IMG/VR virus record: IMGVR_UViG_3300030098_004409
Location: 46,289 to 110,288 of that record
DNA length: 64,000 bases
Reading direction: 5' to 3' (one strand)
Source: a virus
Shown: one piece after another, positions 40,117 through 59,707 of the stretch
Numbering within the stretch: the stretch's first letter is position 1
Layout of the letters: each line of letters opens with the position of its first letter
Program-made: the position numbers and the translations under genes
Notes under the pieces: generated by a model
The model's database searches: none
What the model was told of the DNA's origin: nothing
The model's input: only the letters and a program-made list of their open reading frames with translations

Positions 40117-43100
40117 CTATGTTCTTCTATCTTGTCTGTCTCGGAAGTTCTGGAACATTTGTTTTAGTTTTCCTGTAGACTGCTGTGCTACCTGATCTGC
40201 TATTGTATTCACAATACTGTTAATAGCTTCTTGCGAGAAGCCGGGTATAGACAACTGTCCGTTAACTGTAATATTGTGATTAATTGATATATTGCTCATC
40301 TGTGCTATTGTAGAACTGAGCAGCTCAGAAAGCGCACTAAATCCATTAAAAGCAGCAGTAAATCCATCAAAAGCTGTTGCGATGCTAGAGCTAAGTGTAT
40401 TAATTGAATTGCTTAAGGCGCTGAAGTCAAGACCGCCCGAACCAGATGCTAGGTCTCCATTTGTTAAGTATTGTACTCCCCCGCCATGCTTCATTCCGGG
40501 AGCGCCTTTATGACCTTTATTGATAGATCTCATAAACCCTACACCGTATTTGTCTACAGCAGATTTGCTCATCACAAACTCGCCCGGAGTCAACATAGCT
40601 GGCACTGTATCAGTCCCCTTAGCCATACCACCCTTGGCGAAGTAACTAGCACCGAATGAACCAAAATCATTAGGCAAAGCTCCAGTAGCGTAGGTGTCTT
40701 GTATCATTTTTAGCACTTCATTCGGGTATCCAGTCTTCCATCCTGCAGCGACTCTTTCTCTTACAAATGCTCCCATTTGCTCAACAGGATTCCATGCTCC
40801 AGATTTAATCCTATCAACCAAAAAGGCTGCTGCCTGCTGCGCTAACCCACCACTAAAAGTGAAAGAGCCTAACTCGCCAAGTGCCATACCAGCGCGCCTA
40901 ACTGCACCATCAAATCCCGGAAGCTTTCTCTGTTGAGCATACCTACTCCATAGCGCTGCAAACATAGGACCTGTAGCATTAGCTAAAGACATCGTGTCGG
41001 AGCCTGCAACAGGAATCGCGCCGGGAGCTCCGATCGCGCCACCGGGATTTGCTACAACATCTGTAAACAAGAATGGTCCCGACATGCCAAATCTTGGAAG
41101 CCCAGCAAAATACCCACCAAAGTCAAGGTTTTTTACATCTGAATCCCTAGTCAGCGAAAAGGCGTAAAAGTATCCATCTGACCGACTTGCGTCTTTAGCG
41201 TATAAACCATTTTCGTTATTTCCAACGCCGGTATATTTATACGTGCCATGATTAGGATCAAATCCACTTGCAAAAGGAAGTCGATTCCAAACACCTCTTC
41301 CATGTTCGTTAATATTCATCATATATGATTTAACTATATCAGCACCAAAAAGTGGTGTGTTGCCTTTGGAAAATTGGCCTATCCATTTGGCTGCGATTGC
41401 GGGGTCTTCTTTTTCCATGTCGTTTGTAGTCCAGAACATTGGATCTATTACTGGACCTCCCTCAGCAAACATCTGGGGAACTGCTCCGCTATTTATTGCG
41501 CTCATGAATGATTTACCGTATTTGCCTACGGCAGATTTTTTCATAACAAATTCGCCGGGAGTTAGCATCGCTGGAACAGTATCTTTATTACCAGCGCCCG
41601 GAACAGAACCACCAGTAGCAAACTTAAATCCTCCACCTAGAACTCCGTTAGCATTTAGGCTATTCATCAAAGCGTCCATTCTTATATCGAAGCGTTGAGC
41701 TAATCCAAATGTCACTCCCTGATGCTGAACCCAAGCGTTGTTAATCCACCCTATAATCTGATTCAATACACCTTGTGCTGCAACTAGAGCGATGGACAAA
41801 GCTTGCATGTCACCTACTAACTGATTTCCTATTGGGGTCATTACCTCAAGATCTGCTTCTAGTGAAGCTGCTTCACCGCTGGTAAGCATGCTAGAGGCCA
41901 TATTACCTATGTCGTCATTGTTATCTTGAATAACAACAGAATTAGCTTGTGCTTGCTGAAGTATCGCTTTGACTGTTGATTGGTCCGCCAACAGTTCGTT
42001 GTTGGCTGTATTTGCCTGAATATTCGATGTATTATCTGTAATATGTGTCAGAGATTTTTCTACGCCCTTTATATCCGCTGAATTTAATTTTACTGTATTA
42101 AGAATTTTATCTAATCTCATATCACGAGCAGGGCCGAACTGAGATACTGCACGACCTCCAGTAGAGAAGTAAGGCCCTGTGTTGCCGAGCCCTCCACCGT
42201 TAATACTAGCCATGAAGCCTAAGCCATATTTGTCTACGGCAGATTTCTGCATAACGAACTCGCCCGGTGTGAGCATTGCTGGAACCGTGTCTGTACCCTT
42301 GGGGCTCCAGTCAACACCGCCAATTGGACCACCCTTTGCTTTCATTTGAGGCTTGGGAGCTACACCAAAGCCCATGTCAGGAAGCGCGAATGGTTGATTT
42401 GCTCCGGCGGCATTTTGAGGCGGCAACCCTACTTTTAGCCATTGTGGTATCTGCCCGAGTTCCTTACTAAACCAATCACTCCAAGGTCGTGATGGGTTCG
42501 CTATGTCTGCATCTATGATGGCGTCGCGAGCACTGTTTTGCATTCTGGTTAGATGATCATCAATTGGTTTAAAACCAAAGAATAACCCTAACATGAATTC
42601 ATCAAACCTTTCGCCAATATTCTCCCAAGTTGGATAGTGGTCAGTTGTCCATTCCTTCATTTGAGCTAATGCTTTTGCGTTCATCGTCAACAGGCCGGCT
42701 GCTCCTCCTGCAGGTATACCTGCGCCGGGCTTCAAAAGTTTACCCTTAAGACTCATTTGGCTAAATGACAAACTCCCATCAGCATTTGCTGCTGTTACAT
42801 GACCTGACGCCCCCATTCCCAAAACAGTCTGCCCCAAAGCAGCAAAATATGGGAATAGACCATCAAAATGTTCCGCGTTTCTTTTTACGTCTGAAAGCCA
42901 CCTTACGGTTCGGTTGTCTTCAATTCTAGGGTCGAATACACCCTCTTTTCCAAATAACTGATGATCTTGAGGTATTCGTGCTATGCCAATTAGAGGTGGC
43001 TCAGGAGATTCGCCCAGAACACGGAAAAGTGTTGATGCTTTCTGTTCTGGAGTACCGTATCCAATTTTAAAGTTTCTTCTTAAGGCCGCTACTACACCTG

Positions 43101-46100
43101 CTTCTTGGGCTGCATCTCCAGCTGCTTCGTCCGCTGCAGCTTGTTCCGCTTCATTTTTGATGGCCCCTAGATTGTCCCCGCCTAATTTAAACTTAGCATT
43201 TCCCCTCCCGAAAACGTTAATTTCAATAGCATCAAGCAAATTCGCCACGGCCTCAGCATCTCCTCCTCTTAATGCATTAGCAAGTGCTACAAACTGACCT
43301 TTAGTATCGTTTACGATTTTCTGCCCGGATGCGTTCTTAGCAATTAGATCTCTTGAGAAGTCTTTTCCCAAAACAGAACTGCCTTTCCAAGGTATATATC
43401 CCAATGCGCCAAAGAAGGACTCATTAATTTTTTCGACCAGATCACCTACTGGTCCAACTCTCCACTCACTTTTGAGGCTGGAATACGGGTACTTCAGGGT
43501 CTTATCTATTGCGTCTCTTGAAGTGACACCCGGACCGACTGACCATTTAGACCATGAAGAGTTAGTAATAAGATCTGCCATCTTTTCAACCGTTCCATCC
43601 AGCTTCAGTGGGAAGAACTTAGGGTCTTTAAAAAATTCTGTTATGTTATCAGCGAATGCTTTATTATCATACATGTTGGATTTGACATATTTTCCCCAGT
43701 TGCCGTAACTGCGATCCATTAGCCCAGACGCTGCCTTTTTAAAGTTTTTAGTCATTTCTTTGACATTTACCAAACCTTTTGCTGATGAGAGCATTGGACC
43801 ATACCAAAGCGCATCAGCCTCTTTCCACATTGTATCAATCTCATCAACAAAATTAAAGGATTGCTGGGTTGGACTTTTATAAAAACCATAAGCGTTGTTC
43901 ATATCCGGATACAACATATTATATGCAGATTGTGGCGTATAGAAAGGTTGACCATTTATTATAGTTCCGGGAGGCCATATGGCACCAGTTGTAGTCATCT
44001 TTTCCAGATTCATTATACCTGTTTTCATAGCCGGTATGTTAGCAAAGAATTCAGATTTATTTGGTATTTCCCCGAGATTGAACTCATCAATGTCAGCCTG
44101 TCTCTTGACTATAGCACGAAGTGCATTAGCAAACTTTGTGTCAAACAAAGCCACATCAGTACCGGGATCTTGATTAGCAAAAATCCATGCCAGATCTGTT
44201 GTAAGCCCTTCCCCTTGAGCGTAATCATAGATAAGAGCACCTTTCTCTGGAGCACCAATTGCCGATTTGCCTTTATAGCTAGAATCGTAAAAGAATCTGA
44301 TATAGTTAACCAGATCCGTTAAGTGCTTTGGATCTTTAACGGATGAGACGCCGGGAAATGTTGTCATCCACTTAACAGAATTGACAGCTCCTGCATACCC
44401 ATTTTTATTGTTTGGCGGATTCTTTAAAAGATCATGCACATTATAATAATCGTAAACCGCCTGCAGATGATACTTCCACTTGTCAACATCCCATCCTTTT
44501 CTCTGAAGAGCACCATCCTTAGATATAGAAAACGGACTTTTGACGATGCTACCGGGTCTATAGTTATTCCATGCCGGAAATTTTTCACCTAACTGACTTC
44601 CCGTATCATATTTTATATATCCAGCCATTCCGCCTCCGCCCATCTCTCCGGGAAGCCAATCGCCAGCATCTTCAACTTTAATGCTTGATCCTGCGTTTAA
44701 AAGACTTTTGTGATTTTCCTTTAAAGCTTCCTTAAGAGCTATACCGTCATCGCTAAAAGACTTAGATAGCTTATCGACGGCTCCGCTATTGTTGGGAGAT
44801 GTCACAACTCCACCTTTAGCCAAGTATGTAGTTTTTCCACTATTTATAGATTTTAGCAACCCCATATTTTGAGATGTTGCTTTTTTATTAACAACAAACT
44901 CTCCCGGCGTCAACATAGCAGGAACAGTGTCTGTGCCTTTAGCTTTAAATGCTGTGTTACTTATGCTCTGACCTTCTGCGGCATAAATAATACCCCCTTG
45001 AGCTCTTCTTTGTGGAGGTCTTCCCCCTCCTGCAGCATCGCCGCCAGCATCTCCCGCTGCTATCTGAGCGTCTTCTAGTGTGGCAACCAAATCACCAATT
45101 GCGGCTATAAGATCCTGCATCTGCTGGAATTCTGCCTGTTGAAGCGCTGTAGCAGCAGCTTGTTCTTCCGCATTAATTGCTCTTAAATCGTTTATAAGCT
45201 TGTCTTCTTTTGTAGTAGACTCAAAAATCTTTTTCAATTCTTGTGGATTTAATCCGAAACCACGAGCTCTAATAGCCAATGCGTTTGCCATCTGAGCTTG
45301 TAATCTTTTGGATATATCTCCGCCAGTCATTCCCGGACGGAGTTCTATATCTTTAAGTCTATCAAGCAGTCCACCAACAGCACCTCTCATTTGATCTGGA
45401 ATCGCATTGAGATTACCGGTAGCTAAAACTCTTTGCAATGCAACAAAAGTTTTATCCATTTCTAATCTTGATTCATTACTGGCAAAAGTGAACTCTTTGA
45501 TGAGACCTTGAATCGTCTCTCTATTACCTCGCTCTTTTTCGATCTCTCCCATTACGGCGGCAGCTAACTCAGCTTGATTCGCTAAATCAGCCAACCCTTC
45601 CTTGAGAAGCTTCGTCTCGTTGTTCAATTTTTTCTGCTCGTTTTGAAGTTTAATTACTTCTTCGGCCTGACCTCTGTCCGCTTTAATTTTTATTTGGGCG
45701 GCTACTTCTTGTTGGCGCTGTCTCTTTCTTTCTAGCTGTATATTTATTGCCTCAACTCCGCCTCCAACTAGACCTGCTCCTGCCAAAGGTGCATTTCTTC
45801 TCTGCTCTGCTGCTGCACCAACTTCCCCAACTGTTAGTTGTCTACCTTGGGCCTTGGCTAGCCTTTCCGCTCCTTTGATTTGCACATCAACCATTTTGGT
45901 GAAAGCTTTAGCGACCGAATTCTCAGCCTTGATCACAGCGTCACCAAACTTGAAGAGCGCGCCAAGATATGCATTTTGAGCTTTAGCCAAGTCCTGAAGA
46001 ACCTTAATTTGTTCTTCATTAGCTTCATTCAGTATCGAAGTTATTTCTTGTATTTCATCTGGAGTCAAGCCATCTTCAAACATGGCTAGTATTTCGTTTC

Positions 46101-49100
46101 TTATGTCTGCATCAAGACCACTCAGATCTATACCTTGATCCCTGAAAAATTCATCAACTTTAAGTTCAGATGCAGTCTCGCTTAGACTACCACCAAATTC
46201 CCTTAAGCCTTCTTCTGTTAGAACTTTTCTAATCCTTTCAGTCTCTTTCATTTGTTCGAGCAGTTTTTGAGTCTCTCCTTCTATACCAAATTGCTCAGCC
46301 GTCTGCATGGCTGCCTGCTCTGCCTCTGGAGTGATAGTTCCACTGGTTAGTGTCCCTATCAGTTTATCATTTTGGGTTCTGTATTGTTTTACGCTTCCTG
46401 TGAGAGCGCCAAATTCCATCATTACACTATCCATAGTGCCGCTGAAGTTTAGTAGCTCTACAGCAAATACGTCTATCGCTGCGGCAGCCTGAGCAGAAGC
46501 TCTAGCCATAGCTATGTCTGCTCGTAGCTTTTGTTCAGCAGTTTCCCTAGCTTTTTGCTCGGCTTCAAGTCTTTCTTTGTCGGCTTTCTTTTGGGCCTCC
46601 ATTGCCTTTTCTGCGTTTGAATTTGCCTCCTGCTGTATTAAAGTCGATTCTAGAGTAGCTATCTGCCTTCTCTGCTCGACAGTCATATTCTCTTCTAATA
46701 CGCCTACAAGCCCTAACCTTGCTTTGGCCTCTTGTTTCATTTGACCAGTCATTAACATCTGTACGCTAAATGCTTGCCTAATAGCGTTTCCAAGGTTCTG
46801 ATAACCTTTCTGTACATCCTTATTGGCCAAGACCTCTTCAATACTCTTGCCGCTTTTGGATAGCTCGTCAATAGTGCCTCTAATACCACTCCTGAGTTTC
46901 TCGGCCTGCTCAAATAAAGTCTGTGCCATCTCTTTCATGGCGTCAACACCTTTTTCTCTTATTTCAGTGAAAATTTCTGAAGCATCCATATCTGCTCGCA
47001 CATCCGAGGTAGCCCCTGATTCAAGCATCATGAACGCTTGCATGGCGCCGGCTGCTCCGGTAGCTTTAGTTGAAAATTCTTCAAATGCAGTGTTCTGTCT
47101 TTTTAGCAGCTCTATACCGTCTAACTGTTCAAGCTCCATCATCTTCTGAGCATTTGATAGGTTCCCCACGGCTGCAGCTGATTCATACAAAGCGGTCGCA
47201 AGGAGCGTCCCTCCATTGAGTATTCCTTCTTCGGCAGTAGCAAAAGACTCTCCAATCTTATAGCCCGCCGCCGCTACTGCAACCGCTGCTACAGTTCCCG
47301 CCGCCGCCAGACCTACAAGCGCAGGTATAGCTAAACTCAAACCTCCAGTAAACGGAACAAGTACTACGGCAAGAGCTGTAACGGCTGCACCGATGGCGGC
47401 GCCCCACAGTCCTCCGGACGCAGCTGCTTCAGCTTGTAAAGCGCTTCTTACCCTCTGTTGACTTTGCGCTAAATTCTCGGCTGCCGCACCTCCTTCTTTG
47501 AGAGAGCTAATCGTATCGTGAAATCCTTTGGCCATATCTTCTGCCGCAGCTTTGGCATTCATAAACATAAGAACAGCGACAGTTATTCCTATGGTAAGTA
47601 TAGCCGCAGCACCCCCAACCCTAAGCATTGCAGCAGTAGCTAGATTGGAAGCTTGAGTCTCATAGTGTTTAGCTGCAGTATTAAGGCCGGATGCCTTCAT
47701 TTCCTGAGCCTTAGCAAGTGCGTTTTGATAAGTTGTATTCTTTTCTAAAAGTTTAGCGACAACGCTTTCAGTCGCTGACGCGGCAACCATACCAAACATC
47801 GTGACAAGCATAGTACCTGTCATAATCATTTCATTTAATTGGTCATCGAACAAACCTAATTGCTGCGTCACCATCGGAAGCATCATTCCCAACATCATCA
47901 TGTTGTTCATAGCCGCCATGCCTCCTCCGCCACCTCCTCCGGCGGCGACTGCTACTCCACCACCACCTCTTGGTGCTCCTGTTGTTGAGGCTGCTGCTCC
48001 GGCTTTGTTTATATTGGCAATAGCTGCAGTTATAGCAGCTTCCAATTTTTCAAAGAATTGATCTGTATCGGCAGAAGCCATGCTAACCTGAGTGACAGAT
48101 ATCGCGCCACTATTTAGACCTTTAGTCATATCCAAGATGGCGTCATTAAGGCCACTGAGTAGATAATAAGTTCCACCTAGTCGATTAGCAATATTTAGCA
48201 TTTGTTTTGATACGGTAGCTACGGGCGCAGCGAGCTTAGCAAACATATTACCCGCTCCGCCAATACCTGTAATAGCATTTGTCATGCCCTTAACAACATT
48301 TGTGGCTCCCGCCATTAGAGCGTTGGCGACGTTGATACTTACTTCAGCAAGAAGTTGACCAGACGCGTTTAGAGCATTACCCATAAGTATTGCTCCTGAA
48401 CTCATTGGGTTCAGATCATCTAATCGAGCAATGACCGAGCCACCAAACGTATTAAGGTCAGTTGCTACGGCCTCAATGGGGGTTACTAGCGTGTCAAAAA
48501 GCGCAACTTTTTCTATCAGTTCTTTTCCAAAAGTATTTAGATGCTTTTCTACCTCTTTCATTGCTCTCTCTACGGCTTTACCGGGACCTGAGAATTGCGC
48601 TTTGAGAGTCTTATCTATAGTTGTAAGGCCTTTAGCAAAATCGGCCATAGAGGTTTTGACTACTGATACAGTAGAATCAATCTGTGCTTTGAAAGTGTCA
48701 TCTATTGTTGACATCCCGGCAGCAAAGTTTTGCACACCTTCAGAAACTACTGTCCCCGCATTAGCTATAGAACCAGCTAGAGGTTGTATAGCTCCGATTA
48801 GTTTCTCGTCTATTGATTGCAGAACATTGATATCGTCAACGGCAGTAGATATAGTATTAGCAAGAGCATTAGCTGCGCCGTTTATCTTTTCGTCTATTCC
48901 TTGAAGGGCTGCGAAGTCATCGACAACTTGAGTTAGAGACTGGCCAATCGTATCTAATTTATATGATAGGGTTGTGGCGGATTTGGCTAGTGCCTCCATA
49001 GAGGTATTAACACCTGTGCCAATATTCATTCCCCCGCCAGCAGGAACTCCAGTGCCACTAGTTCCATTGGCGAAGAACTGGACTGGGCCACCTTTATTAA

Positions 49101-51666
49101 AATTGGCAACTCCTTGCTTGTTCATTCTATTTAGGTTGCCATAGCCTATCTGCTGAGCAGACTTTTTATTTATTACATACTCACCGGGAGTTAGCATTGC
49201 GGGTACAGTATCTACTTGACCGCCGGAGTTATACGCTCCTATTCTTCCGCCAAAGAACTTGCCTACTTGTGACAAACCTCTCGATAACGCAGCTTGAGTT
49301 GCAGACTGTTGTGCTGGACTATCGGGAGTTCCTTGTGTCCTTCTTATTTTGAGTCCAAAATTTGCCGCCGATTTATTTGATTCGCCTATGAGGGTATTTA
49401 GTATTTTTGTGGTCATAGATCCATCTTTGCCACTTATCTGATCTGTACCAAAAGTCTTTTTAAGCTCCAAAGCCTCTATGTTCTTCATTGACTTTGCATC
49501 AAAAAGTTTTTCAAGTTGTTTCTGATGGGTCTTGGGGTTGGGCATATCCCAGCCGCCTCTAGCTTCTGCTAGCGGAGCGCCTGACAGCATAGAGGTTACA
49601 GCCTCAAACATCAAACCAGAAATTGTATTTAGGTCTATAGACGCGAGAGCAGAATCCGCAGCTTTTGTCTCATCAAAAGTTAAATGCGGAGGAACATCAA
49701 ACGAAAGCTCTTTACCAATAGACTTGGCCATGCTTTTAACTGATTTACGTAGGTGTCTTTGTATAAACTCAGGATCACCAGACTGTGCCATGCTTTCATT
49801 CGCTGGAGCATTTATGAACGGTACATTCATTACTATATGATCTTCGGGCCCAAGGGCGCCCATTCCAACAGCTTGAGCTGCTGGGGATTTTTCTAGTTTT
49901 TGCCCATACTTTTTGTAGATAGCAGGAGGCAGTGCTCCAAATAACCTATCTACGCCGCCAGACGTACCCTTAGATGCAGTGTATGCTACTCCGGGAAGTC
50001 TACCGCCACCCATAACTTCAAAACCATCGACTTCTTCATCGCCCGCAAGAGAAACGCTACCCATAGTTGTCCCCGACTTGCGGGGAACACCTCTACCTAC
50101 CGTACCTGTATTATACCCATTCATTTCAGCTAGTCTACTTGCGCCAATTTTATTTACAGAAGACTTTCTAATTACAAACTCACCGGGTGTAAGCATAGCG
50201 GGAACTGTGTCTCTATTTCCTGTACCCGGAACATAACCACCCTTGTTAAAGCCATGTATCTTTCCACCTTGATTTCTTCCAGCAATTCCAGCAAATCTAC
50301 CGAAAGCAGGAACTGCTATCTGCCCAAGTTTAAATGCGGCAAGCGTTGTTAATATAGGAAGCAGCGGCTCTAAAGCGTCTACAATCCTAAGCACAGCATC
50401 TGCAAATTGAAGTGCCCCTTCAGCCAAGCTTCTAAACGTTCCACTATCTACCATATCACGAACAGTAGCGTCAAACTTTTCTTTCAGTTTAGCAAACTGA
50501 TTTCCAAGACCCTGTTGAGCTGTAGCTGCGTCTGCTGCAGTAGAACCCATAGAATTATTAGCCACAGCCAAGGCTTCAACAGATGTGCTGTATTGTTTGA
50601 TAAGAGGAATAACCTTACCGATCTGCCTAAATCCACCAAGCTGTTCTACGATCTCGTTAAATCTAAAGTCTCTTGGATCTAGACCAGATAGTCCAGCGGA
50701 CAACCTCTTTATTGCTTCAAGAGGCCCGACAAACTTACCAGTAGAATCCTGTAGGACAATACCTAACTCTCTCAGTTGATCTATTGTCTCAGTTCTCTGA
50801 ATACGAGTAAAGATAGTTCTAAACCCAGTAGCGATTGTGTCTGCGGTTTCACGAGTTGTAGATCTAACAGATGTGAACAATGCAATCAATTCATTTAACT
50901 GACCACCTGCAGCTTCAAATACACCCCCAGTTCTACGAACAACAGAGATAAGGTCAGCAGACTCAACAGCGAAGTTCTTAGATACAGCATTGATTGCGTC
51001 TAAGGCGTTTTCTAAAAACTTAGCCTCACTTCCAGCAGCGCGCACCTCTTTCCTAAACTGATTGATTAAAGCAACTGCACCCTCAGTAGTATCGGCAATG
51101 TTATCAAACGTAGCAGCTAAATCTGTTTGAGTCAATATCCTCAAAGATTTTGTAACTTGGTCAGCGGCTAAACCAGCTTGTGAAAGTGTTCTAGCTGCGC
51201 TTAATATCTCTTCAGAGCTAACCCCGAAGGTAGTAGCTAGCCTTGTGACCTCACCACTTAAGTTCTGCAGCGAGCGTACACTTTTCCCAGTCACCTGAGA
51301 AATCTTAAGCATTTCTTTTTCAAACTCAACAGCCCTACCTACGGCAGCTCCCATTGCGCGAGTAATACCTAAGAAGAAGCCCGTAGCAAGAGTAATCGAG
51401 GCAAATCTTCTGGCTGCAGCACCAAGGGCAGAACCAAAGCTTTCTGCAGATCTTGACGCGCCCCTTAAGTTTTTACTAACACTTCCCGCTGCTACTGATA
51501 CTTGAGTAAGTTGTTTTTGCGCGTTTGCAAGAGCTGAAGTGTTTATAACGGGATTGATTGGAATGTTAACAGCACTACCTAACTGCTTCTGCATCTGAGT
51601 AACTACCTGCCTAGTATTGGTAGGAGCTTGTAGCTGTAGCTGAGCAGTTAGTACAAATTTTGACAT
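40117..51666 (-). CDS. Tail tape measure protein (TP901-type N-terminal domain) with six internal conserved boxes
   Basis: 3849 aa. N-terminal FEKEMLKISQVTG...LSQAGL...NAVSKNFAVESADL...TIATGFRTIFTRI; long Ala-rich helical stretches; hydrophobic segments at ~47260-47910; follows tube and chaperone genes. Confidence 0.92.
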   Translation of the reverse strand: MSKFVLTAQLQLQAPTNTRQVVTQMQKQLGSAVNIPINPVINTSALANAQKQLTQVSVAAGSVSKNLRGASRSAESFGSALGAAARRFASITLATGFFLGITRAMGAAVGRAVEFEKEMLKISQVTGKSVRSLQNLSGEVTRLATTFGVSSEEILSAARTLSQAGLAADQVTKSLRILTQTDLAATFDNIADTTEGAVALINQFRKEVRAAGSEAKFLENALDAINAVSKNFAVESADLISVVRRTGGVFEAAGGQLNELIALFTSVRSTTRETADTIATGFRTIFTRIQRTETIDQLRELGIVLQDSTGKFVGPLEAIKRLSAGLSGLDPRDFRFNEIVEQLGGFRQIGKVIPLIKQYSTSVEALAVANNSMGSTAADAATAQQGLGNQFAKLKEKFDATVRDMVDSGTFRSLAEGALQFADAVLRIVDALEPLLPILTTLAAFKLGQIAVPAFGRFAGIAGRNQGGKIHGFNKGGYVPGTGNRDTVPAMLTPGEFVIRKSSVNKIGASRLAEMNGYNTGTVGRGVPRKSGTTMGSVSLAGDEEVDGFEVMGGGRLPGVAYTASKGTSGGVDRLFGALPPAIYKKYGQKLEKSPAAQAVGMGALGPEDHIVMNVPFINAPANESMAQSGDPEFIQRHLRKSVKSMAKSIGKELSFDVPPHLTFDETKAADSALASIDLNTISGLMFEAVTSMLSGAPLAEARGGWDMPNPKTHQKQLEKLFDAKSMKNIEALELKKTFGTDQISGKDGSMTTKILNTLIGESNKSAANFGLKIRRTQGTPDSPAQQSATQAALSRGLSQVGKFFGGRIGAYNSGGQVDTVPAMLTPGEYVINKKSAQQIGYGNLNRMNKQGVANFNKGGPVQFFANGTSGTGVPAGGGMNIGTGVNTSMEALAKSATTLSYKLDTIGQSLTQVVDDFAALQGIDEKINGAANALANTISTAVDDINVLQSIDEKLIGAIQPLAGSIANAGTVVSEGVQNFAAGMSTIDDTFKAQIDSTVSVVKTSMADFAKGLTTIDKTLKAQFSGPGKAVERAMKEVEKHLNTFGKELIEKVALFDTLVTPIEAVATDLNTFGGSVIARLDDLNPMSSGAILMGNALNASGQLLAEVSINVANALMAGATNVVKGMTNAITGIGGAGNMFAKLAAPVATVSKQMLNIANRLGGTYYLLSGLNDAILDMTKGLNSGAISVTQVSMASADTDQFFEKLEAAITAAIANINKAGAAASTTGAPRGGGGVAVAAGGGGGGGMAAMNNMMMLGMMLPMVTQQLGLFDDQLNEMIMTGTMLVTMFGMVAASATESVVAKLLEKNTTYQNALAKAQEMKASGLNTAAKHYETQASNLATAAMLRVGGAAAILTIGITVAVLMFMNAKAAAEDMAKGFHDTISSLKEGGAAAENLAQSQQRVRSALQAEAAASGGLWGAAIGAAVTALAVVLVPFTGGLSLAIPALVGLAAAGTVAAVAVAAAGYKIGESFATAEEGILNGGTLLATALYESAAAVGNLSNAQKMMELEQLDGIELLKRQNTAFEEFSTKATGAAGAMQAFMMLESGATSDVRADMDASEIFTEIREKGVDAMKEMAQTLFEQAEKLRSGIRGTIDELSKSGKSIEEVLANKDVQKGYQNLGNAIRQAFSVQMLMTGQMKQEAKARLGLVGVLEENMTVEQRRQIATLESTLIQQEANSNAEKAMEAQKKADKERLEAEQKARETAEQKLRADIAMARASAQAAAAIDVFAVELLNFSGTMDSVMMEFGALTGSVKQYRTQNDKLIGTLTSGTITPEAEQAAMQTAEQFGIEGETQKLLEQMKETERIRKVLTEEGLREFGGSLSETASELKVDEFFRDQGIDLSGLDADIRNEILAMFEDGLTPDEIQEITSILNEANEEQIKVLQDLAKAQNAYLGALFKFGDAVIKAENSVAKAFTKMVDVQIKGAERLAKAQGRQLTVGEVGAAAEQRRNAPLAGAGLVGGGVEAINIQLERKRQRQQEVAAQIKIKADRGQAEEVIKLQNEQKKLNNETKLLKEGLADLANQAELAAAVMGEIEKERGNRETIQGLIKEFTFASNESRLEMDKTFVALQRVLATGNLNAIPDQMRGAVGGLLDRLKDIELRPGMTGGDISKRLQAQMANALAIRARGFGLNPQELKKIFESTTKEDKLINDLRAINAEEQAAATALQQAEFQQMQDLIAAIGDLVATLEDAQIAAGDAGGDAAGGGRPPQRRAQGGIIYAAEGQSISNTAFKAKGTDTVPAMLTPGEFVVNKKATSQNMGLLKSINSGKTTYLAKGGVVTSPNNSGAVDKLSKSFSDDGIALKEALKENHKSLLNAGSSIKVEDAGDWLPGEMGGGGMAGYIKYDTGSQLGEKFPAWNNYRPGSIVKSPFSISKDGALQRKGWDVDKWKYHLQAVYDYYNVHDLLKNPPNNKNGYAGAVNSVKWMTTFPGVSSVKDPKHLTDLVNYIRFFYDSSYKGKSAIGAPEKGALIYDYAQGEGLTTDLAWIFANQDPGTDVALFDTKFANALRAIVKRQADIDEFNLGEIPNKSEFFANIPAMKTGIMNLEKMTTTGAIWPPGTIINGQPFYTPQSAYNMLYPDMNNAYGFYKSPTQQSFNFVDEIDTMWKEADALWYGPMLSSAKGLVNVKEMTKNFKKAASGLMDRSYGNWGKYVKSNMYDNKAFADNITEFFKDPKFFPLKLDGTVEKMADLITNSSWSKWSVGPGVTSRDAIDKTLKYPYSSLKSEWRVGPVGDLVEKINESFFGALGYIPWKGSSVLGKDFSRDLIAKNASGQKIVNDTKGQFVALANALRGGDAEAVANLLDAIEINVFGRGNAKFKLGGDNLGAIKNEAEQAAADEAAGDAAQEAGVVAALRRNFKIGYGTPEQKASTLFRVLGESPEPPLIGIARIPQDHQLFGKEGVFDPRIEDNRTVRWLSDVKRNAEHFDGLFPYFAALGQTVLGMGASGHVTAANADGSLSFSQMSLKGKLLKPGAGIPAGGAAGLLTMNAKALAQMKEWTTDHYPTWENIGERFDEFMLGLFFGFKPIDDHLTRMQNSARDAIIDADIANPSRPWSDWFSKELGQIPQWLKVGLPPQNAAGANQPFALPDMGFGVAPKPQMKAKGGPIGGVDWSPKGTDTVPAMLTPGEFVMQKSAVDKYGLGFMASINGGGLGNTGPYFSTGGRAVSQFGPARDMRLDKILNTVKLNSADIKGVEKSLTHITDNTSNIQANTANNELLADQSTVKAILQQAQANSVVIQDNNDDIGNMASSMLTSGEAASLEADLEVMTPIGNQLVGDMQALSIALVAAQGVLNQIIGWINNAWVQHQGVTFGLAQRFDIRMDALMNSLNANGVLGGGFKFATGGSVPGAGNKDTVPAMLTPGEFVMKKSAVGKYGKSFMSAINSGAVPQMFAEGGPVIDPMFWTTNDMEKEDPAIAAKWIGQFSKGNTPLFGADIVKSYMMNINEHGRGVWNRLPFASGFDPNHGTYKYTGVGNNENGLYAKDASRSDGYFYAFSLTRDSDVKNLDFGGYFAGLPRFGMSGPFLFTDVVANPGGAIGAPGAIPVAGSDTMSLANATGPMFAALWSRYAQQRKLPGFDGAVRRAGMALGELGSFTFSGGLAQQAAAFLVDRIKSGAWNPVEQMGAFVRERVAAGWKTGYPNEVLKMIQDTYATGALPNDFGSFGASYFAKGGMAKGTDTVPAMLTPGEFVMSKSAVDKYGVGFMRSINKGHKGAPGMKHGGGVQYLTNGDLASGSGGLDFSALSNSINTLSSSIATAFDGFTAAFNGFSALSELLSSTIAQMSNISINHNITVNGQLSIPGFSQEAINSIVNTIADQVAQQSTGKLKQMFQNFRDRQDRRT
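40573..50211 (-). repeat. Six dispersed DTVPAMLTPGE(F/Y)V coding repeats in the TMP
   Basis: Copies at 50173-50211, 49174-49212, 44893-44931, 42253-42291, 41545-41583 and 40573-40611. Confidence 0.95.
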
Positions 51667-51763: not shown

Positions 51764-52729
51764 TTATGAAACTTCCTCTGTCTTTTTAGGTCTTCCACGT
51801 TTTTTTGGTGTATTTTCCTCAACTTCTGCAGTTTCTTCCGTAGTTTCTTCTGCAGTCTCTTTTTCAGGTACTGGAACAGGTTTCCCAGAATCGTCTAAAA
51901 ATGGCTCAAAATCATCCTCTACAAGCTCACCTTCTTCAGTGACCTCTTTGCCTTCTTTATTCACAAAATAACGATCTTCAGGATCTTGATTTTTATAACC
52001 TTCATCTGTTCTGTAGGCAATAAATCTAAGATTTTCATCAACCAAATACTCTTCTCCTTCTTCTTCATCTAAGAAAATAGGATGGCCATCTTCGTTAACT
52101 AATTGATTCTTTTTATTGGCAAAGTTATAAGCCTTAAGGAATTTATTTTCCTCTAAAGTATTATCATAGTTAGGGTCAAGTTCATAAATCAAAGATGCTA
52201 GCTCTCCTGCAGCTTCTGCTGCCCAAGGTTGGTCTCCCTGATCATCATAGTCCTTGAGATCTTCAAATGCTGGTGTCCGCTTATCTTGCTTAAGTACACA
52301 TAGTGTGACGAGAGAATTAAAGCGAGCATTATCTGCCTGACCTTCTACAGTGTTAGAATCGAGCATAGTTCTTTCAGCAATTAAGGTTCTAAACTTAGCC
52401 CGTGTCTTTCTTAGACTGAGAGCAATCTCTTTGGCTCTACTAAGCGAAATACCACCCTTCTTAAGTCTGCCTTCATCGTCGGCAATCTTAGTCAAAAGCT
52501 TTTTCTCTTCCGAGTCTTTGGCATCGTCCCACAACCCCTGAGATCTCATGTATTCTCCAAGCTTCTTTTTAAGAATAGCTCCGCCCTCCAAGGCTTCACG
52601 GAAAGCTTTATTGTATTCAATTTGAGAGTTTTTATACTCTTTAGTTGAGGGTCGCTTAACAAAAACAGTTACATCTTTGTCGTTATTATCTTTAGAATTT
52701 ACTTCTACAAAATCCTTCTTATCTGCCAT
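51764..52729 (-). CDS. Tail assembly chaperone-like protein (paralogue of 53089-54135)
   Basis: Directly upstream of the TMP; charged/helical; shares an ungapped motif pattern with 53089-54135. Confidence 0.65.
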   Translation of the reverse strand: MADKKDFVEVNSKDNNDKDVTVFVKRPSTKEYKNSQIEYNKAFREALEGGAILKKKLGEYMRSQGLWDDAKDSEEKKLLTKIADDEGRLKKGGISLSRAKEIALSLRKTRAKFRTLIAERTMLDSNTVEGQADNARFNSLVTLCVLKQDKRTPAFEDLKDYDDQGDQPWAAEAAGELASLIYELDPNYDNTLEENKFLKAYNFANKKNQLVNEDGHPIFLDEEEGEEYLVDENLRFIAYRTDEGYKNQDPEDRYFVNKEGKEVTEEGELVEDDFEPFLDDSGKPVPVPEKETAEETTEETAEVEENTPKKRGRPKKTEEVS

Positions 52730-52730
52730 C

Positions 52731-53087
52731 TTAATTCTCCTTTTCTTCTTTAATAGGTAGATTTACTGTGTATCTTTTCCAAGAAACATCATAGTGTGAT
52801 ATCTCTGCTTCTAGATTTCTTATTTGTGTGTTGCCACGATCCAAAATTTCAGATCGAGCATTTTCAAAAATAGACTTCAGTTGAACTTGTTCTTGTGTAA
52901 GCTCTCCATCCGTCTGCCATAAAAAACCAAAACTTTTTTCAATAGTATCCAAAGCTCCAATCATAGTTGTTTGAACCTTTTTCTTTGCTACTTGAAAAAG
53001 TCGGTCTTTTGAAACTTCCTTGTATCTCTCATCTCTTTTCTTTTTGAGGTCGAGAGATTGCTTTAATAAGCTATTATAATCATTCAT
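52731..53087 (-). CDS. Hypothetical helical protein in the tail chaperone region
   Basis: 118-aa ORF coupled to both neighbours. Confidence 0.65.
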   Translation of the reverse strand: MNDYNSLLKQSLDLKKKRDERYKEVSKDRLFQVAKKKVQTTMIGALDTIEKSFGFLWQTDGELTQEQVQLKSIFENARSEILDRGNTQIRNLEAEISHYDVSWKRYTVNLPIKEEKEN

Positions 53088-53088
53088 C

Positions 53089-54135
53089 TTACCTCATTCC
53101 TTTATAATGATCTTTCATTTGTTGAGTCCTCTGAATTTCTATGTCTTGTCGGACATCGTTCAATTCAGTAAAATTAATTTGACCTTCTTTTTGTTTTAAT
53201 TGGTCCTCCCTCTGTTTGATGGTTCCTCTGGCAAAGCCATCATTTAAGTCATATATTTGACTGGCGTCTTTACGGTCTTCAGCCATAACGAAGACTTCAC
53301 CAGCGTTTCTAATTTTTTCATTTTGTATCATGCCATCCACCTGATTTGATTTCTTTTGTTTTTCTTGTTTCTTACGCTGTACTATAAACCATCCATCTAG
53401 ACATATATCATCTGCTATCAGCTCTTCAGATGGAGCTTCTGGACTTTCATGAACGCTATCGTACATCTTTGAGTACATACATAGCCTAGACTGGTCTTGT
53501 GTTATTCTTGAGAATGGCACACCAAATATGTCTGTGCCTTTTCCTGTAGACCACATACCTCTCCACAGATCAGATCTAGCTAACTCTCTGTATTGTGGCT
53601 GAGATAGTGAGTTGGAGACTTTAAAGTTAAGGGCACTGGTGACTGAGCCCTCAGACCAATCGTACAAATTGCCATCTTTGTAGTGGACGGTTTTGCTAAT
53701 TATCCAAGCGTTTCTTGCTAATGTAGCACAGCCCTCACATGTCACATGATCAAGCGAGGATTTTTTACTATAGAGCTCAAGCCACTTCTTCTCAAGTCTA
53801 TGTATTTCCATTTTTATTGAATTAAGCTGTCTCTTCTTGACAAAGCTTTTAAAAGCGTCAACCTTTTTATTTTCTACCTGCTCCTGTAACTTATCTGCTT
53901 CTCTATCGTCTAGCGGTGTCCAGTAGTCATTTTCTATGAGTATTGGTATTATTTCTTCTTTGACATATACACCCTTCCAATAGCACTCATCATAAACCTC
54001 ATCATATACTTCATGTGATTCATATATAATTTCTGGAGTAGGTTCATGTATATATAGAACAAGGCCGTCTCGCACCTTGTAGCGCAAGCGACCTTGTATT
54101 ATTCTATATAAGTTTTTTTCGATATCTATTGACAT
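53089..54135 (-). CDS. Tail assembly chaperone-like protein
   Basis: Follows the tail tube gene; C-terminal YDSVHESPEAPSEELIADDICLDGWF resembles pre-TMP chaperones of large phages. Confidence 0.6.
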   Translation of the reverse strand: MSIDIEKNLYRIIQGRLRYKVRDGLVLYIHEPTPEIIYESHEVYDEVYDECYWKGVYVKEEIIPILIENDYWTPLDDREADKLQEQVENKKVDAFKSFVKKRQLNSIKMEIHRLEKKWLELYSKKSSLDHVTCEGCATLARNAWIISKTVHYKDGNLYDWSEGSVTSALNFKVSNSLSQPQYRELARSDLWRGMWSTGKGTDIFGVPFSRITQDQSRLCMYSKMYDSVHESPEAPSEELIADDICLDGWFIVQRKKQEKQKKSNQVDGMIQNEKIRNAGEVFVMAEDRKDASQIYDLNDGFARGTIKQREDQLKQKEGQINFTELNDVRQDIEIQRTQQMKDHYKGMR

Positions 54136-54223
54136 CTTGCCTTCCTAAAAATCCACCTAAAGCGCTTGCCGTCTTTTTTCCTATTATATTATATATAGAC
54201 GACTGTCGCGCGACACTAGCAAA

Positions 54224-55306
54224 TTAGCTACCGCTAGTATAGTAAGAACCACCACCATGAACTTTCAAGTCATTGAAAGTAGAGTAGGAGTAAGTACAAG
54301 TAGCGTTTCCACCACCAGTGTCACCACCAGAGTAAGAAACAGAACTCAGTTTGTTCTGAGTACCAAGGTCAATAACATGACCACCATCGTCCTTGATAAC
54401 AATCTCACGATTGTTCAAGTTTTCAGCAGTACCAGAAACATTAACTAAGTCACCACTAACAGCAGTAACTTCAAATTCAGCAGTAACTTCAATTGGGTAA
54501 CCAGCGTATCTGTGATAAGGCCCAAATGAACCCAGCTCTAAGATGCTTTCACGACCAAAGTCTGCACTAACAGAAATACTGCTGATATGGTATCCTTTAC
54601 TCTTGTCAGTACTAGTAGTTCCCATTGGGTTACTAATTTCTGCAGGAATCGTGGAATTTTTAATATCAACCTTCTGGCGTCTAACAAGACCACTACCTGT
54701 AGGCGAGCCTGTAGCAGGAGCGTTACTTGCTGACGTTGAAGTGTCAGAACCATCTAGCCCCGTAGTTGGGCTTGCGCCATAACTAGTATCTGGATTAGGA
54801 ACAACACCAGCAGTGTTATCTGACCAGAATTTATCGTTACCAACGAGCGTTATAGATTCTGTAGCGGCTCCATCAGTAGGATAAGTGTAAGAAACAGAAC
54901 TAATGTACATACCCGAACACATAACAACAGCACCAACTGAAGCACCACTAGTGCTACTGACGGTATCTGCATAAACACCAAGATAAACATCTGACCTGTT
55001 TTTACCCGCAGCAACCATATTATCTTTAACTGAGTTACCGCAAGCTTGACCATAAAGAAGTGGCTTACCATCAAGTACCTTTTCTAGGGTAACTTCGATA
55101 TCGGCAACTTCCTCTGAGTTTTCGTAGATCTGAATCTGGCCCAACTCAAAAGCTTGGTCTAGCGTAAAATTACTGGTAATACCAACAGATTGCACACCTT
55201 CCATAAAGCGGCCTGCGGTAGATGGACTACCGACTGCTGCTGGAGTGTGACCTGTTTTACCAATAAAAACAGCTTGGCAAGCATAGAATATTCTATTATT
55301 AGCCAT
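54224..55306 (-). CDS. Major tail tube protein
   Basis: 360 aa. GVQSVGITSNFTLDQAFELGQ...DIEVTLEK and a second ISSISVSADFGRESILELG...IEVTAEFE repeat give a tube-like beta fold; lies between the terminator-like gene and the chaperones; AGGAG RBS. Confidence 0.75.
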   Translation of the reverse strand: MANNRIFYACQAVFIGKTGHTPAAVGSPSTAGRFMEGVQSVGITSNFTLDQAFELGQIQIYENSEEVADIEVTLEKVLDGKPLLYGQACGNSVKDNMVAAGKNRSDVYLGVYADTVSSTSGASVGAVVMCSGMYISSVSYTYPTDGAATESITLVGNDKFWSDNTAGVVPNPDTSYGASPTTGLDGSDTSTSASNAPATGSPTGSGLVRRQKVDIKNSTIPAEISNPMGTTSTDKSKGYHISSISVSADFGRESILELGSFGPYHRYAGYPIEVTAEFEVTAVSGDLVNVSGTAENLNNREIVIKDDGGHVIDLGTQNKLSSVSYSGGDTGGGNATCTYSYSTFNDLKVHGGGSYYTSGS

Positions 55307-55367
55307 AATAATCTCCTATTTGATTAACATATATACGTATACTATCCACCTCTGGCTTGGTTATTAG

Positions 55368-55380
55368 TATATACACAAAA
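55368..55380 (-). promoter_or_regulatory. Putative late-promoter motif TTTTGTGTATATA
   Basis: Recurrent intergenic motif upstream of the tail tube gene. Confidence 0.6.
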
Positions 55381-55395
55381 AATTGAAAAAAGGTC

Positions 55396-56388
55396 TTATA
55401 TTCCTTCAGTTTCGGTAGCACATCGCACTGTTCCCATGTATAAATTGGGCGCTATTTGTGTGATTCCTTGCCCTCTAGTGTTGTGTATAAAGCACTGAGA
55501 CTTGTATCTAAAGTTATAAGAGGCATCAGAGGGGTTTGGTGCTTCATCTACTAGCTGGGGATAAAGGCCGCTAGGTAAAGCATTTTCGTTTATTTCACCC
55601 CTATAGTTAAGAGGATATACTCCAGAGATGGCAACTTTGTTTGTATCAAAAAGCCATATACTCCTATCGTTTTGGTAAGATATTTGGTCAATAAGGTTAT
55701 TACATTCCCAGTGGTTTTCCGCTACAACATAGAACAACACATCATTATACACGTATTGTCCACCACCTAATTGCCTCCCCTTAAAACCAACAGCAGGAAC
55801 AACCTCTACTGCGACTGTTGGAAGTTGAACTCTTGTCTGACCGAGTTGGGCCCAATCGCCAGAACCAAACTGTGTAAATGTGGAATTATCTGCACGGAAT
55901 GAGCCCTGTTGAATTTCTCTAAACCAAGGCACGCCTTCCGCAGGAATAACACTCACCCATTTGTGAGCGTAGTCTAATTTAACTTCTGTATTAGTAGATA
56001 TGGCAGTGTCAAATACAACTCTACCATCTGGGTAATTTATATGATAAGGTTGTTGTATGTTACCAGTAGCTCTGAATGTTCCGCCGACAAATACTCCAGA
56101 TATTCTGATTGGCTGTTCTGGATTTGCCACTCCGGTTTCCCAAACCCAATTACTTCTATAACCCTCCCAGACCTGACCATCAGTATAATTTGGATCGTCT
56201 ACAGCCCTTAGCTTATGTAGATCTCCTCCATATAAACCTGACTGAGGAATTTCTATATTGTAAAAAGCGCCTGCGTTTGTAAAGCCCCAATCATAAAAAG
56301 TTATAAAATTTTCAAGCAGCTGGTTGGAAAGCGTCGCGTCTTGTGTATTTTCAATACCTACTAGTGACTTGTACTGTTCATCTGGCAT
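55396..56388 (-). CDS. Tail terminator/neck protein
   Basis: 330 aa. QLPTVAVEV...QLGGGQ...DVLFYVVAEN..ECNNLIDQI is a tail-completion-like pattern; position directly before the tube gene. Confidence 0.6.
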   Translation of the reverse strand: MPDEQYKSLVGIENTQDATLSNQLLENFITFYDWGFTNAGAFYNIEIPQSGLYGGDLHKLRAVDDPNYTDGQVWEGYRSNWVWETGVANPEQPIRISGVFVGGTFRATGNIQQPYHINYPDGRVVFDTAISTNTEVKLDYAHKWVSVIPAEGVPWFREIQQGSFRADNSTFTQFGSGDWAQLGQTRVQLPTVAVEVVPAVGFKGRQLGGGQYVYNDVLFYVVAENHWECNNLIDQISYQNDRSIWLFDTNKVAISGVYPLNYRGEINENALPSGLYPQLVDEAPNPSDASYNFRYKSQCFIHNTRGQGITQIAPNLYMGTVRCATETEGI

Positions 56389-57008
56389 TATGATAGACTC
56401 CTTACAATAGCCCTCTGTATCTCCCCAGTTCTTGGCTCTAAGGCTCTAGTTATAAAGTTATCGGTAGCAGTACCTGAAAACGCACTATTGACCTTAAATG
56501 GCCTTCTTTTAACTGTCATGTGTGCCATTCCACTTCTACCCTTCGGTCCATAATCAACACCAAAATCGGCTATAATAATAGAGTCACCAGCTGTTAGTAA
56601 CCATTGAAGCCAAGGTATGGAGCCTCCTGTTTCTATTTCAGTGCGTCCAAGATTTAAAAGATTGACAAAGCTAGTTGGCTGTATGCCTATAGTAACTCCA
56701 CCAGAAATGTTCCTGCCTTTAATAGAAAACTTTTGTGCTGTAAAACTAATAGACTCCGCAATCGCATTGACGATTGGGGTAGTGGCATCTTCACCAATTG
56801 GTATACCAAAGTCAGCTCTAAGCTTTCCTCCGTCTATGGATGAAATCTCTGGGCAGGACTGCAAAGCACTTCTGACTATTACTTTTATTGGCTCTTTAGC
56901 TCTAGTAACAGATTTTAAAAAACCCCTATTTGCTTCGTCTACCAAAGCTCTTAATATCTTCTTTTCAATATTAGCTGTGGTTTCGGTCAGCTTTATGGAT
57001 AAAGACAC
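56388..57008 (-). CDS. Neck/tail-completion protein (HK97 gp10-like position)
   Basis: GKLRADFGI, IPWLQWLL and NFITRAL. Probable GTG start at 57008 overlapping the upstream TAG (ORF track start 57026). Confidence 0.5.
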   Translation of the reverse strand: MSLSIKLTETTANIEKKILRALVDEANRGFLKSVTRAKEPIKVIVRSALQSCPEISSIDGGKLRADFGIPIGEDATTPIVNAIAESISFTAQKFSIKGRNISGGVTIGIQPTSFVNLLNLGRTEIETGGSIPWLQWLLTAGDSIIIADFGVDYGPKGRSGMAHMTVKRRPFKVNSAFSGTATDNFITRALEPRTGEIQRAIVRSLS

Positions 57009-57520
57009 TATCCGTTCCTTTCCCAAAACGTGACAGCATACTTTTCTGGATTTTGTTTAAACCCTTGCGGGTATGCTACACTAGCTCTTGTGAATTTCAT
57101 AGTATGGTAGTTTGATATATCGCCGTAAGATTTTGGAATGAGATACTTTGCATTATCCAGCTTTGGAAGGTGAGTCATTTTAGATATAACCTGTATTGCA
57201 CCTTCAGCTAAGTTAACGGCAATACCAATGTCTCTCCATTGCTTTGGCTCCCAGTAAACTCTTACTTCTATATCTTCTTCTGTTTCTACAGCCTTATAGC
57301 CAGCTCCACCACAAGATGGACAAGGCATCCCTCGGCCAAAAGGATATGGGCCGCCGGGCTTGTATACACTTACAGAGCGAGTTCGCGTCCCCATTGTGTC
57401 TAAATAACAATTAGGGCATGACTCTTTTTTCTCTGGGTATACTAACGTGACGGTGCGCTCAAAAAGCTGCACCGCCTCATTATATACATTAAAAACACCT
57501 GTTGGTATTACTATGGGCAT
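57008..57520 (-). CDS. Head-closure/stopper protein with Zn-finger insert
   Basis: CPNC...CPSCGGAGY; position in the head-tail joining block. Confidence 0.55.
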   Translation of the reverse strand: MPIVIPTGVFNVYNEAVQLFERTVTLVYPEKKESCPNCYLDTMGTRTRSVSVYKPGGPYPFGRGMPCPSCGGAGYKAVETEEDIEVRVYWEPKQWRDIGIAVNLAEGAIQVISKMTHLPKLDNAKYLIPKSYGDISNYHTMKFTRASVAYPQGFKQNPEKYAVTFWERNG

Positions 57521-57524
57521 GATA

Positions 57525-57821
57525 TTAAACAGTCACAAAAAATACTTTCGATGAGGTTCCGCTAACGGCTCTCACGTAAATTGTAGATGGGTCGATAACT
57601 GGAATAACTACACTCTCTCCAGCAGACAATGGGAATCCATCTGTTGCATCAGCGGCGTCGGTTGTAACTGTAGAAATTCCTACATATACTTTAACCGAAT
57701 TCGTCGAATCTGCCACAATCTGAACCCCCCTAGACGCGTGGGTTGAAGTAGTTGTAAGCTGCACGGCGGTTGTCCCAATGCTGCTTTTTCTACCAGTTGC
57801 AAAACTTGATACTCCTGCCAT
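57525..57821 (-). CDS. Small virion protein (beta-sandwich)
   Basis: AVQL...GVQIVADSTNSVKVYVG...GFPLSAGES pattern, common in small phage structural proteins. Confidence 0.55.
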   Translation of the reverse strand: MAGVSSFATGRKSSIGTTAVQLTTTSTHASRGVQIVADSTNSVKVYVGISTVTTDAADATDGFPLSAGESVVIPVIDPSTIYVRAVSGTSSKVFFVTV

Positions 57822-57832
57822 ATTTAAGCTCC

Positions 57833-58060: not shown

Positions 58061-58075
58061 TTTAATTCTCCTTTA

Positions 58076-58588: not shown

Positions 58589-58623
58589 TTTATTTTTCCT
58601 TTATACTAGGTTATTACATATAC

Positions 58624-58635: not shown

Positions 58636-58636
58636 T

Positions 58637-59695: not shown

Positions 59696-59707
59696 CTAAC
59701 AATATTC

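Follow-up and report, generated by a model that had tools for sequence, protein, structure and literature searches.

A tape measure protein of an uncultured marine phage with six conserved boxes at the borders of scaffold segments and exchangeable cassettes

Why does a phage tape measure protein (TMP) carry the same short peptide six times? The question is raised by a 64,000-nt stretch of viral DNA (positions 46,289 to 110,288 of the IMG/VR virus record IMGVR_UViG_3300030098_004409), hereafter the window. An open reading frame (ORF) on its minus strand encodes a protein of 3,849 amino acids (aa), P0001. The repeated element is a box of ~55 aa built around the sequence DTVPAMLTPGE. The best explanation overall, to which we give a probability of about 0.6, is that P0001 is a scaffold TMP with exchangeable cassettes in its C-terminal third, bordered by the boxes as joints. 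The source record is 110 kb long and estimated to be ~71% complete.

A Pfam scan places PF10145 (PhageMin_Tail) in the N-terminal part of the protein with an E-value of 1.5e-24 (87.5 bits against a cut-off of 33.2). Several PHROG tape-measure families, including phrog_28 and phrog_4211, match the first ~460 aa. Two relatives, P0002 (3,829 aa) and P0003 (3,811 aa), are collinear with P0001 from end to end at 70-72% identity. Because they align over the full length, the gene is real and does not result from misassembly. The nearest cultured TMPs, from SPbeta-like Bacillus phages, reach only ~24% identity over the N-domain, and the lineage is therefore deeply uncultured. One relative, P0021, was sampled from Tara Oceans surface water. 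On the strength of these matches, P0001 is assigned as a TP901-type TMP of an uncultured marine long-tailed phage. It consists of an N-domain, a segment called slot 1, a long core, cassettes D, E and F and a C-terminal segment, and each border is marked by one box, as follows (HMM, hidden Markov model).

40117..51666, minus strand: TMP gene P0001, 3,849 aa (open frame; PF10145 and PHROG TMP families; collinear relatives).
50257..51666, minus strand: N-terminal TMP domain, aa 1-470, scaffold family 1 (PF10145 at aa 140-343).
50077..50259, minus strand: box 1, aa 470-530, FNKGG ... DTVPAMLTPGEFV ... N (HMM domain E-value 1.7e-25).
49234..50079, minus strand: slot-1 segment B, aa 530-811, divergent single family 2, scaffold (segment clustering).
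49078..49260, minus strand: box 2, aa 803-863, YNSGG ... core ... FNKGG (motif, alignment, HMM).
44980..49077, minus strand: long helical/membrane core, aa 864-2229, family 0 (composition and hydropathy).
44797..44979, minus strand: box 3, aa 2230-2290, RAQGG ... core ... LAKGG (motif, alignment, HMM).
42340..44802, minus strand: cassette D, aa 2289-3109, family 7 with 16 members (rich in Trp and other aromatic residues).
42157..42339, minus strand: box 4, aa 3110-3170, KAKGG ... core ... FSTGG (motif, alignment, HMM).
41629..42159, minus strand: cassette E, aa 3170-3346, 177 aa, family 34 with 3 members (helical in a low-confidence model).
41449..41631, minus strand: box 5, aa 3346-3406, FATGG ... 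core ... FAEGG (motif, alignment, HMM).
40654..41448, minus strand: cassette F, aa 3407-3671, 265 aa, family 16 with 6 members (aromatic-rich; strands and helices in a low-confidence model).
40477..40659, minus strand: box 6, aa 3670-3730, FAKGG ... core ... HGGG (motif, alignment, HMM).
40120..40482, minus strand: C-terminal segment G, aa 3729-3849, scaffold family 3 (presumed hub-binding end).

The sequence DTVPAMLTPGE occurs exactly six times in P0001, starting at aa 486, 819, 2246, 3126, 3362 and 3686. A 61-aa alignment of the six boxes has 15 invariant columns, formed by a Gly, the DTVPAMLTPGE core, a Val, a Lys and an Asn. The whole unit can be written as aromatic-x-x-GG, a short Gly-rich linker, DTVPAMLTPGE(F/Y)V.xK...G....N, a second linker and a second aromatic-x-x-GG. 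All ten xxxGG motifs that an earlier, sequence-only reading of this DNA had listed as flanking the boxes are present. Eight of them fit the pattern [FYLM][ANS]xGG, which P0001 contains beside a box and nowhere else; five other large proteins of the virion module contain it 0-1 times each. No box was found outside the P0001 ORF in a six-frame scan of the window. The last box lies 164 aa from the C-terminus.

At the DNA level, the 33-nt cores of the six boxes are 73-85% identical to one another. Identity at their third codon positions is 39%, against 41% expected from the codon usage of the gene, and the longest nucleotide run common to any two boxes of the gene is 14 nt. The same reading had described near-identical boxes with synonymous divergence, and these figures agree with it. 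Saturation of the synonymous sites means that the copies are old and that selection acts on the peptide. Recent duplication or gene conversion of the boxes is ruled out by the randomised synonymous sites. All six boxes are under strong purifying selection. Resemblances of the core to a TonB-box and to foldon, noticed by eye, were dropped; the motif is also present in phages of Gram-positive hosts.

TMPs grow by duplication of units. P0001 might thus be a simple, very long ruler enlarged by internal duplication, with boxes that are functionless remnants. The 16 nearest relatives, which have similar total lengths (3,477-3,898 aa), are in line with such a ruler, as is phage TM4, where motifs embedded in the TMP count as ruler (PMC1796659). 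However, the inter-box segments of P0001 are unlike one another, and a simply duplicated ruler unit is thereby ruled out. The 11-residue core is invariant in 6/6 boxes despite the saturated synonymous sites, so the boxes are not decaying remnants. The cassettes moreover differ between close relatives, as described below. We consider this explanation very improbable.

The search matched 343 relatives, 120 of which are listed (2,123-6,618 aa). Box number is 3-8 in these 120, and in the 257 relatives of at least 2,000 aa it has a mode of 4 and a range of 3-10. The relatives were cut at their boxes and the resulting 1,459 segments were clustered into families. A few families form a scaffold: family 1 is the N-domain, family 2 slot 1, family 0 the long core and families 3, 4 and 6 the C-terminus. 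Family 1 occupies the N-terminal slot in 245/245 cases. Identity over the N-domain is 40-95% in 119 of the 120 listed relatives, the remaining one, P0027, beginning within the core and having no match there. Family 2 is found in slot 1 in 206 of its 217 members. Family 0, ~1,370 aa long in P0001, was found in 247 relatives. In P0001 this core consists of A, E, L, K and Q for 45% and is called helical from its composition; its transmembrane-like stretches lie at aa 1280-1469 (window 47260-47829), with Kyte-Doolittle windows at 1280-1298, 1343-1375 and 1417-1469. Family 3 is C-terminal in 129/129 cases, and P0002, P0003 and P0005 are 93-94% identical there. By analogy with the T5, JBD30, Douge and lambda structures, segment G is presumed to bind the hub (PMC10038345, PMC11445458, PMC13033339, PMC12617516). 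The 284 further segment families, 191 of them singletons, are mostly located between core and C-terminus. The order of these post-core cassette families in nine proteins is given below.

P0001: 7-34-16
P0002: 7-93-16
P0004: 52-34-16
P0005: 7-8
P0006: 7-8-23
P0008: 7-35
P0013: 36-23
P0019: 11
P0022: 53-54-16

Per-segment identities are incongruent among close relatives. P0002 keeps 93% identity to P0001 in both the N-domain and the C-terminus and 89% in the core, whereas D, E and F are at only 64%, 43% and 39%. In P0004, E is 84% identical while the core is at 52% and D is absent. In P0005, the C-terminus is 94% identical, the core is at 50% and both E and F are absent. P0008 has a single box where P0001 has box 5, F and box 6, which reads as the mark left by a box-by-box crossover. 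The segments between the last four boxes are therefore swapped, added or dropped among related phages as box-plus-cassette units. The sequence-only reading had proposed a modular protein with the boxes as module borders, and had suggested a survey of box copy number and inter-box shuffling across phages. The clustering into scaffold and cassettes and the variation in both box number and cassettes bear this out, and invariant, collinear inter-box segments are not what the relatives display. Slot 1 and the long core belong to the scaffold and are not swappable cargo.

Do the boxes also act as recombination joints, as that reading had suggested? Among 10,865 ends of long alignments, 42% fall within 10 aa of a box against 11% at random, and the median distance to a box is 18 against 148 aa, an enrichment that is inflated by the tendency of local alignments to stop at conserved islands. 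Nucleotide-level comparison of a junction was made with L002 (IMGVR_UViG_3300029319_000302), the sole relative close enough. Its positions 4528-8472 match window 47700-51666 with 80-97% DNA identity through the N-domain, box 1, slot 1 and box 2, and identity then falls to ~40-55% inside the core, from ~aa 1040. No box lies at this mosaic junction, and some other mosaic breaks likewise lie away from boxes, within the long helical core. Between close relatives, the DNA of orthologous boxes agrees at 96-97% of positions, while the longest uninterrupted match between paralogous boxes of the gene is 14 nt. On these figures, intergenomic exchange would be more likely than an intragenomic deletion. 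Overall, a role of the boxes as recombination joints appears partly supported: boxes have more than their share of breaks, and units come and go as wholes, but other breaks occur inside the core, and the pattern would look the same if selection removed breaks that fall inside cassettes.

Cassette D has 821 aa, including 20 Trp, and 11% of its residues are Phe, Trp or Tyr. It is rich in aromatic residues and proline and looks globular. In relatives it is replaced by family 52, 36, 11, 53 or 27. Homologues of D have 748-889 aa, share ~25-64% identity and show few indels; their 16 near-invariant positions are G, F, W, L, P, A and V, one R and one K. Cassette F, absent from P0008, also looks globular and is proline-rich, with 14% Phe, Trp or Tyr. 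A homologue search among proteins of similar length gave three matches for D and one for F, and single-protein pattern scans of viral contigs gave nothing for either. In the ESM Atlas, nothing was found for D; for F, the search returned unnamed viral clusters and a weak LPD38 lead (0.90). The AlphaFold2 model of slot 1 reaches pLDDT (predicted local distance difference test) values of 50-75 at aa 548-777 and is alpha/beta. With low-confidence models as query, Foldseek found no match in the PDB at E<=0.001. A wide VIA-align search gave a best Z of 5.7, for a helical hairpin only.

The sequence-only reading had seen in the inserts a string of effector domains. In its strongest form this makes P0001 an injected polyprotein, each insert being an enzyme or a toxin that acts inside the host after release. 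There is a precedent in gp96 of phage P23-45, a TMP that carries an active enzyme into the cell (PMC10770324), and the nearest family-named Atlas lead for F, the weak one to LPD38, points the same way. On the other side, no insert of P0001 matches an enzyme family. No recognisable lytic domain, such as TMPs with an embedded cell-wall hydrolase have (Mt3 of TM4, pb2C of T5, YomI of SPbeta), was found in P0001 in Pfam, NCBIfam or PHROG, and the models are too poor to judge a novel fold. Scans of the same three libraries, which may not model the unusual RNA polymerase of gp96, revealed no polymerase family; over the N-terminal 470 aa they matched PF10145 and TMP families only. The precomputed Pfam domains of the 120 listed relatives, the nearest ones, include no enzyme; they comprise PF10145 and a few Gly-zipper, EF-hand and SHD1 domains. 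No fold match was obtained, and D is devoid of conserved catalytic-type residues, a pattern more in keeping with a structural or binding module than with an enzyme. Effectors of this kind are therefore unlikely, and the proposal of effector domains found no backing in family matches or in models of this quality.

As a side observation on domain content, the relatives P0099, P0114 and P0115 belong to a class of 5,300-5,500 aa with EF-hand domains (PF13405, PF13202 and PF00036), which are calcium-binding modules, inside the TMP. Gly-zipper PF13488 is found in P0053 and P0054.

The box is not restricted to these relatives. When 1.84 billion representatives were searched with a profile of the six boxes, 21,380 protein clusters matched at E<=1e-3, of which 1,236 remained at the stricter threshold of E<=1e-30. 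The top matches are proteins of 2,100-7,900 aa with 4-10 boxes. In cultured phages, 614 of 50,697 records match, most of them in genes annotated as TMP; the majority are mycobacteriophages, followed by Gordonia, Burkholderia, Vibrio, Lactococcus and Synechococcus phages. A PDB-wide profile search revealed two boxes in Douge gp16 (961-1018 and 1411-1476 of 1,699 aa; E-value 2.4e-10), one in lambda gpH (730-777 of 853 aa; E-value 0.0018) and one in JBD30 gp46 (1017-1073 of 1,158 aa). The gpH box has both flanks, FATGG733-737 ... RGEFVF ... YATGG778-782 (L013:143-2704). TM4 gp17 has a single box at 704-750. The earlier statement that similar motifs occur in other TMPs is borne out by lambda, JBD30, TM4 and Douge among many others.

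Over ~1,000 boxes of the relatives, the consensus is KFASGGSVPGSGGTDTVPAMLTPGEFVINKSAVQKIGLGLLKAINKGKVAGFAKGGVV, and the unit is therefore flank, linker, core, linker, flank. Among 1,079 cores in the 257 relatives, the upstream flank is present in 67% and the downstream flank in 77%; the median distance from last box to C-terminus is 175 aa. To judge from these profile matches, the box is an ancient and widespread TMP module. Ordinary TMPs have one or two copies, placed after the ruler and ahead of the C-terminal end. Pfam has no model for it. PF09718 (Tape_meas_lam_C) was rejected, as it covers gpH 627-701 and not 733-782, and TIGR01541 spans the lambda box without matching P0001. The published structures of the Douge, JBD30 and lambda TMPs resolve only the last 32-42 residues, the box not being among them (PMC13033339, PMC11445458, PMC12617516). 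A description of the joint, or of its repetition as a cassette border, was not found in searches of the open-access literature.

Lambda gpH provides a link to proteolytic processing. It loses a C-terminal peptide of ~14 kDa, cut "from the glycine-rich region", which leaves gpH* at about residues 1-710 (PMC12617516). The lambda box starts ~20 residues past this estimated end. T5 pb2 (L012:22122-25781) is cut after R1127 (R1127|A1128; PMC10038345). An AEGG follows right after the cut, and then PGVSYQMGEHGTEVV, reported as a Zn-carboxypeptidase-like motif. By analogy with lambda, cleavage of the P0001 boxes is plausible, at somewhat less than an even chance. A broader proposal is that long-tailed phages in general may use the box as a signal for maturation, which would either cleave itself or be recognised by a protease. 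The TMPs of lambda and of mycobacteriophages and these giant marine ones would then all be cut at it, and multi-box TMPs would be polyproteins releasing host-specific, exchangeable envelope-acting proteins ahead of the DNA. This remains tentative and, in our view, rather doubtful; if true, it would settle the site and the mechanism of gpH cleavage.

In the main rival explanation, the boxes would be structural nodes that stay uncleaved, small folds that depend on a partner. Placed on either side of segments unable to form a coiled coil, they would hold three (or six) TMP chains in register, or dock to the tube lumen, a chaperone or the hub. Once the TMP has been ejected, one box could fasten it to the opened hub like a hook, and the cassette pattern would be a by-product. 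In JBD30, residues 1022-1066 were predicted by the authors as a "hook" of two helices and a beta-hairpin, with a speculated cut at 1066 (PMC11445458), and our alignment shows that this region is the box. The authors liken the hook to the C-terminus of T5 pb2*, which is lodged between hub subunits (PMC11445458, PMC10038345), although no similarity to the box could be detected in the sequence of the T5 hook. The strong purifying selection on all six copies would suit such nodes, and so would the failure to model the box with confidence as a monomer, which fits a partner- or oligomer-dependent fold. However, a single anchor would suffice, so that six boxes are left unexplained, and so is the lambda cut beside its box. 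We regard uncleaved nodes as possible but not probable.

Returning to the reading of P0001 as a scaffold with joint-bordered cassettes, the following mechanism can be proposed. Crossovers in or beside the joints, between co-infecting relatives, would create cassette combinations, and only those in which every cassette is whole would survive selection. As in T5, JBD30 and lambda, the TMP would leave the tail C-terminus first, so that F, E and D would arrive at the host envelope ahead of the core that forms the channel. There the cassettes probably act by binding or remodelling adapted to the host. The joints would be Gly-flanked insulators of neighbouring segments and, as in lambda, may also be cut, which would free the cassettes. 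By analogy with TM4, the cassettes would count toward ruler length, giving a tail of ~0.58 micrometre (3,849 x 0.15 nm).

Besides the junctions inside the core and the behaviour of local alignments mentioned above, several observations weigh against this scheme. None of the inserts of P0001 has a family in Pfam, PHROG, NCBIfam or the ESM Atlas, and no acidic, His, Cys or Ser residue of D is conserved across 13 relatives, which leaves no function assignable. Per-segment structure prediction, which the sequence-only reading had suggested, could be carried out for two regions, with mean pLDDT values too poor for conclusions: 46.7 for aa 465-870 (16 rows in the alignment) and 38.5 for aa 3100-3849 (8 rows). 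The boxes themselves have pLDDT values of 25-40 in monomer models, which do not define their fold. As to processing, the argument for cleavage of the boxes comes from lambda and T5. In lambda, the exact cut site and the catalyst are stated as unknown (PMC12617516). T5 pb2 has no significant box match (score -2.5) and was rejected as a member on these statistics, since only the AEGG after the cut resembles a flank; it is therefore a lead. No GG-specific protease (Peptidase_C39, C48) was found in the 110-kb record, itself incomplete. Finally, neighbouring genes are devoid of annotation, and neither tail type nor partner proteins could be deduced from them.

These neighbours are same-strand genes of large structural size, located on the minus strand at window 17164-40110 and 51764-61381. 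Proteins of 2,808, 1,444, 1,247, 975 and 522 aa are among those of the virion module. The neighbour proteins have no Pfam or PHROG match except DUF6171 / phrog_13558 in a 140-aa protein at 18184-18606. No sheath family was found in the record, within its ~71% completeness. The lineage is very poorly charted. Separately, CCWGG, a Dcm/EcoRII-type site, occurs 0 times on both strands of window 1-64000, against 82 +/- 7 expected from dinucleotide-preserving shuffles, which points to strong restriction-site avoidance. The Thr-Pro-Gly codon runs of all six boxes read CCC-GGN or CCG-GGN.

TMPs are usually seen as rulers or channel formers with an occasional lysin. Here, a joint repeated 3-10 times marks borders of exchange, in an architecture common to thousands of uncultured relatives. 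The joint provides a handle for parsing giant TMPs into scaffold and cargo and for finding new envelope-acting phage proteins. It also gives a sequence handle on the gpH cleavage site and its mechanism, and would be the natural site for engineered inserts in TMPs. As an instance, P0001 is of limited value, since no function can be assigned to its cassettes.

TMPs with one embedded module, cleavage of the lambda and T5 TMPs and a TMP-fused polymerase are already published. The TMP of Thermus phage P23-45, gp96, is also a giant (5,002 aa) that carries a functional module into the host (PMC10770324). In contrast with P0001, its cargo is N-terminal and is a known enzyme, the virion RNA polymerase, and no cassette exchange is described. 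Iyer et al. (2017) reportedly treated the polyvalent proteins that phages and conjugative elements encode. The effectors Sle1/Tme of contractile injection systems are related to TMPs and have variable domains (PMC13277306). Both groups resemble P0001: they are large and delivered, or built as TMP-like scaffolds, and their functional domains can be interchanged. Their domains are recognisable enzymes or toxins and no repeated conserved joint separates them, whereas the P0001 inserts have no recognisable domain.

In T5 pb2, the cut separates the membrane segment from the muralytic part, ahead of the C-terminal cargo, and the AEGG next to it resembles a joint flank. The protein matures to pb2* and pb2C, and both fragments remain in the tail (PMC10038345). 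It differs from P0001 by its single cut and by the lack of a statistically detectable box. In TM4 gp17, whose N-domain is TMP_3, the only box lies just upstream of an embedded segment, Mt3, that is functional and dispensable. Mt3 is a peptidoglycan-hydrolase motif of 114 aa centred on W853, the activity of which was demonstrated experimentally (PMC1796659). Without Mt3 the tail is ~20 nm shorter, in agreement with prediction (PMC1796659), and an embedded module therefore counts as ruler. Douge gp16 (PMC13033339) has two boxes ~390 aa apart, compared with six in P0001. Lambda gpH has one joint and no inserted cassette in its 853 aa, and its N-domain is TMP_2, not PF10145. As in P0001, this joint has both flanks and stands between the ruler/channel part and the C-terminal hub-binding helix; gpH is cut in the Gly-rich tract just upstream of it and matures to gpH* and gpHC (PMC12617516).

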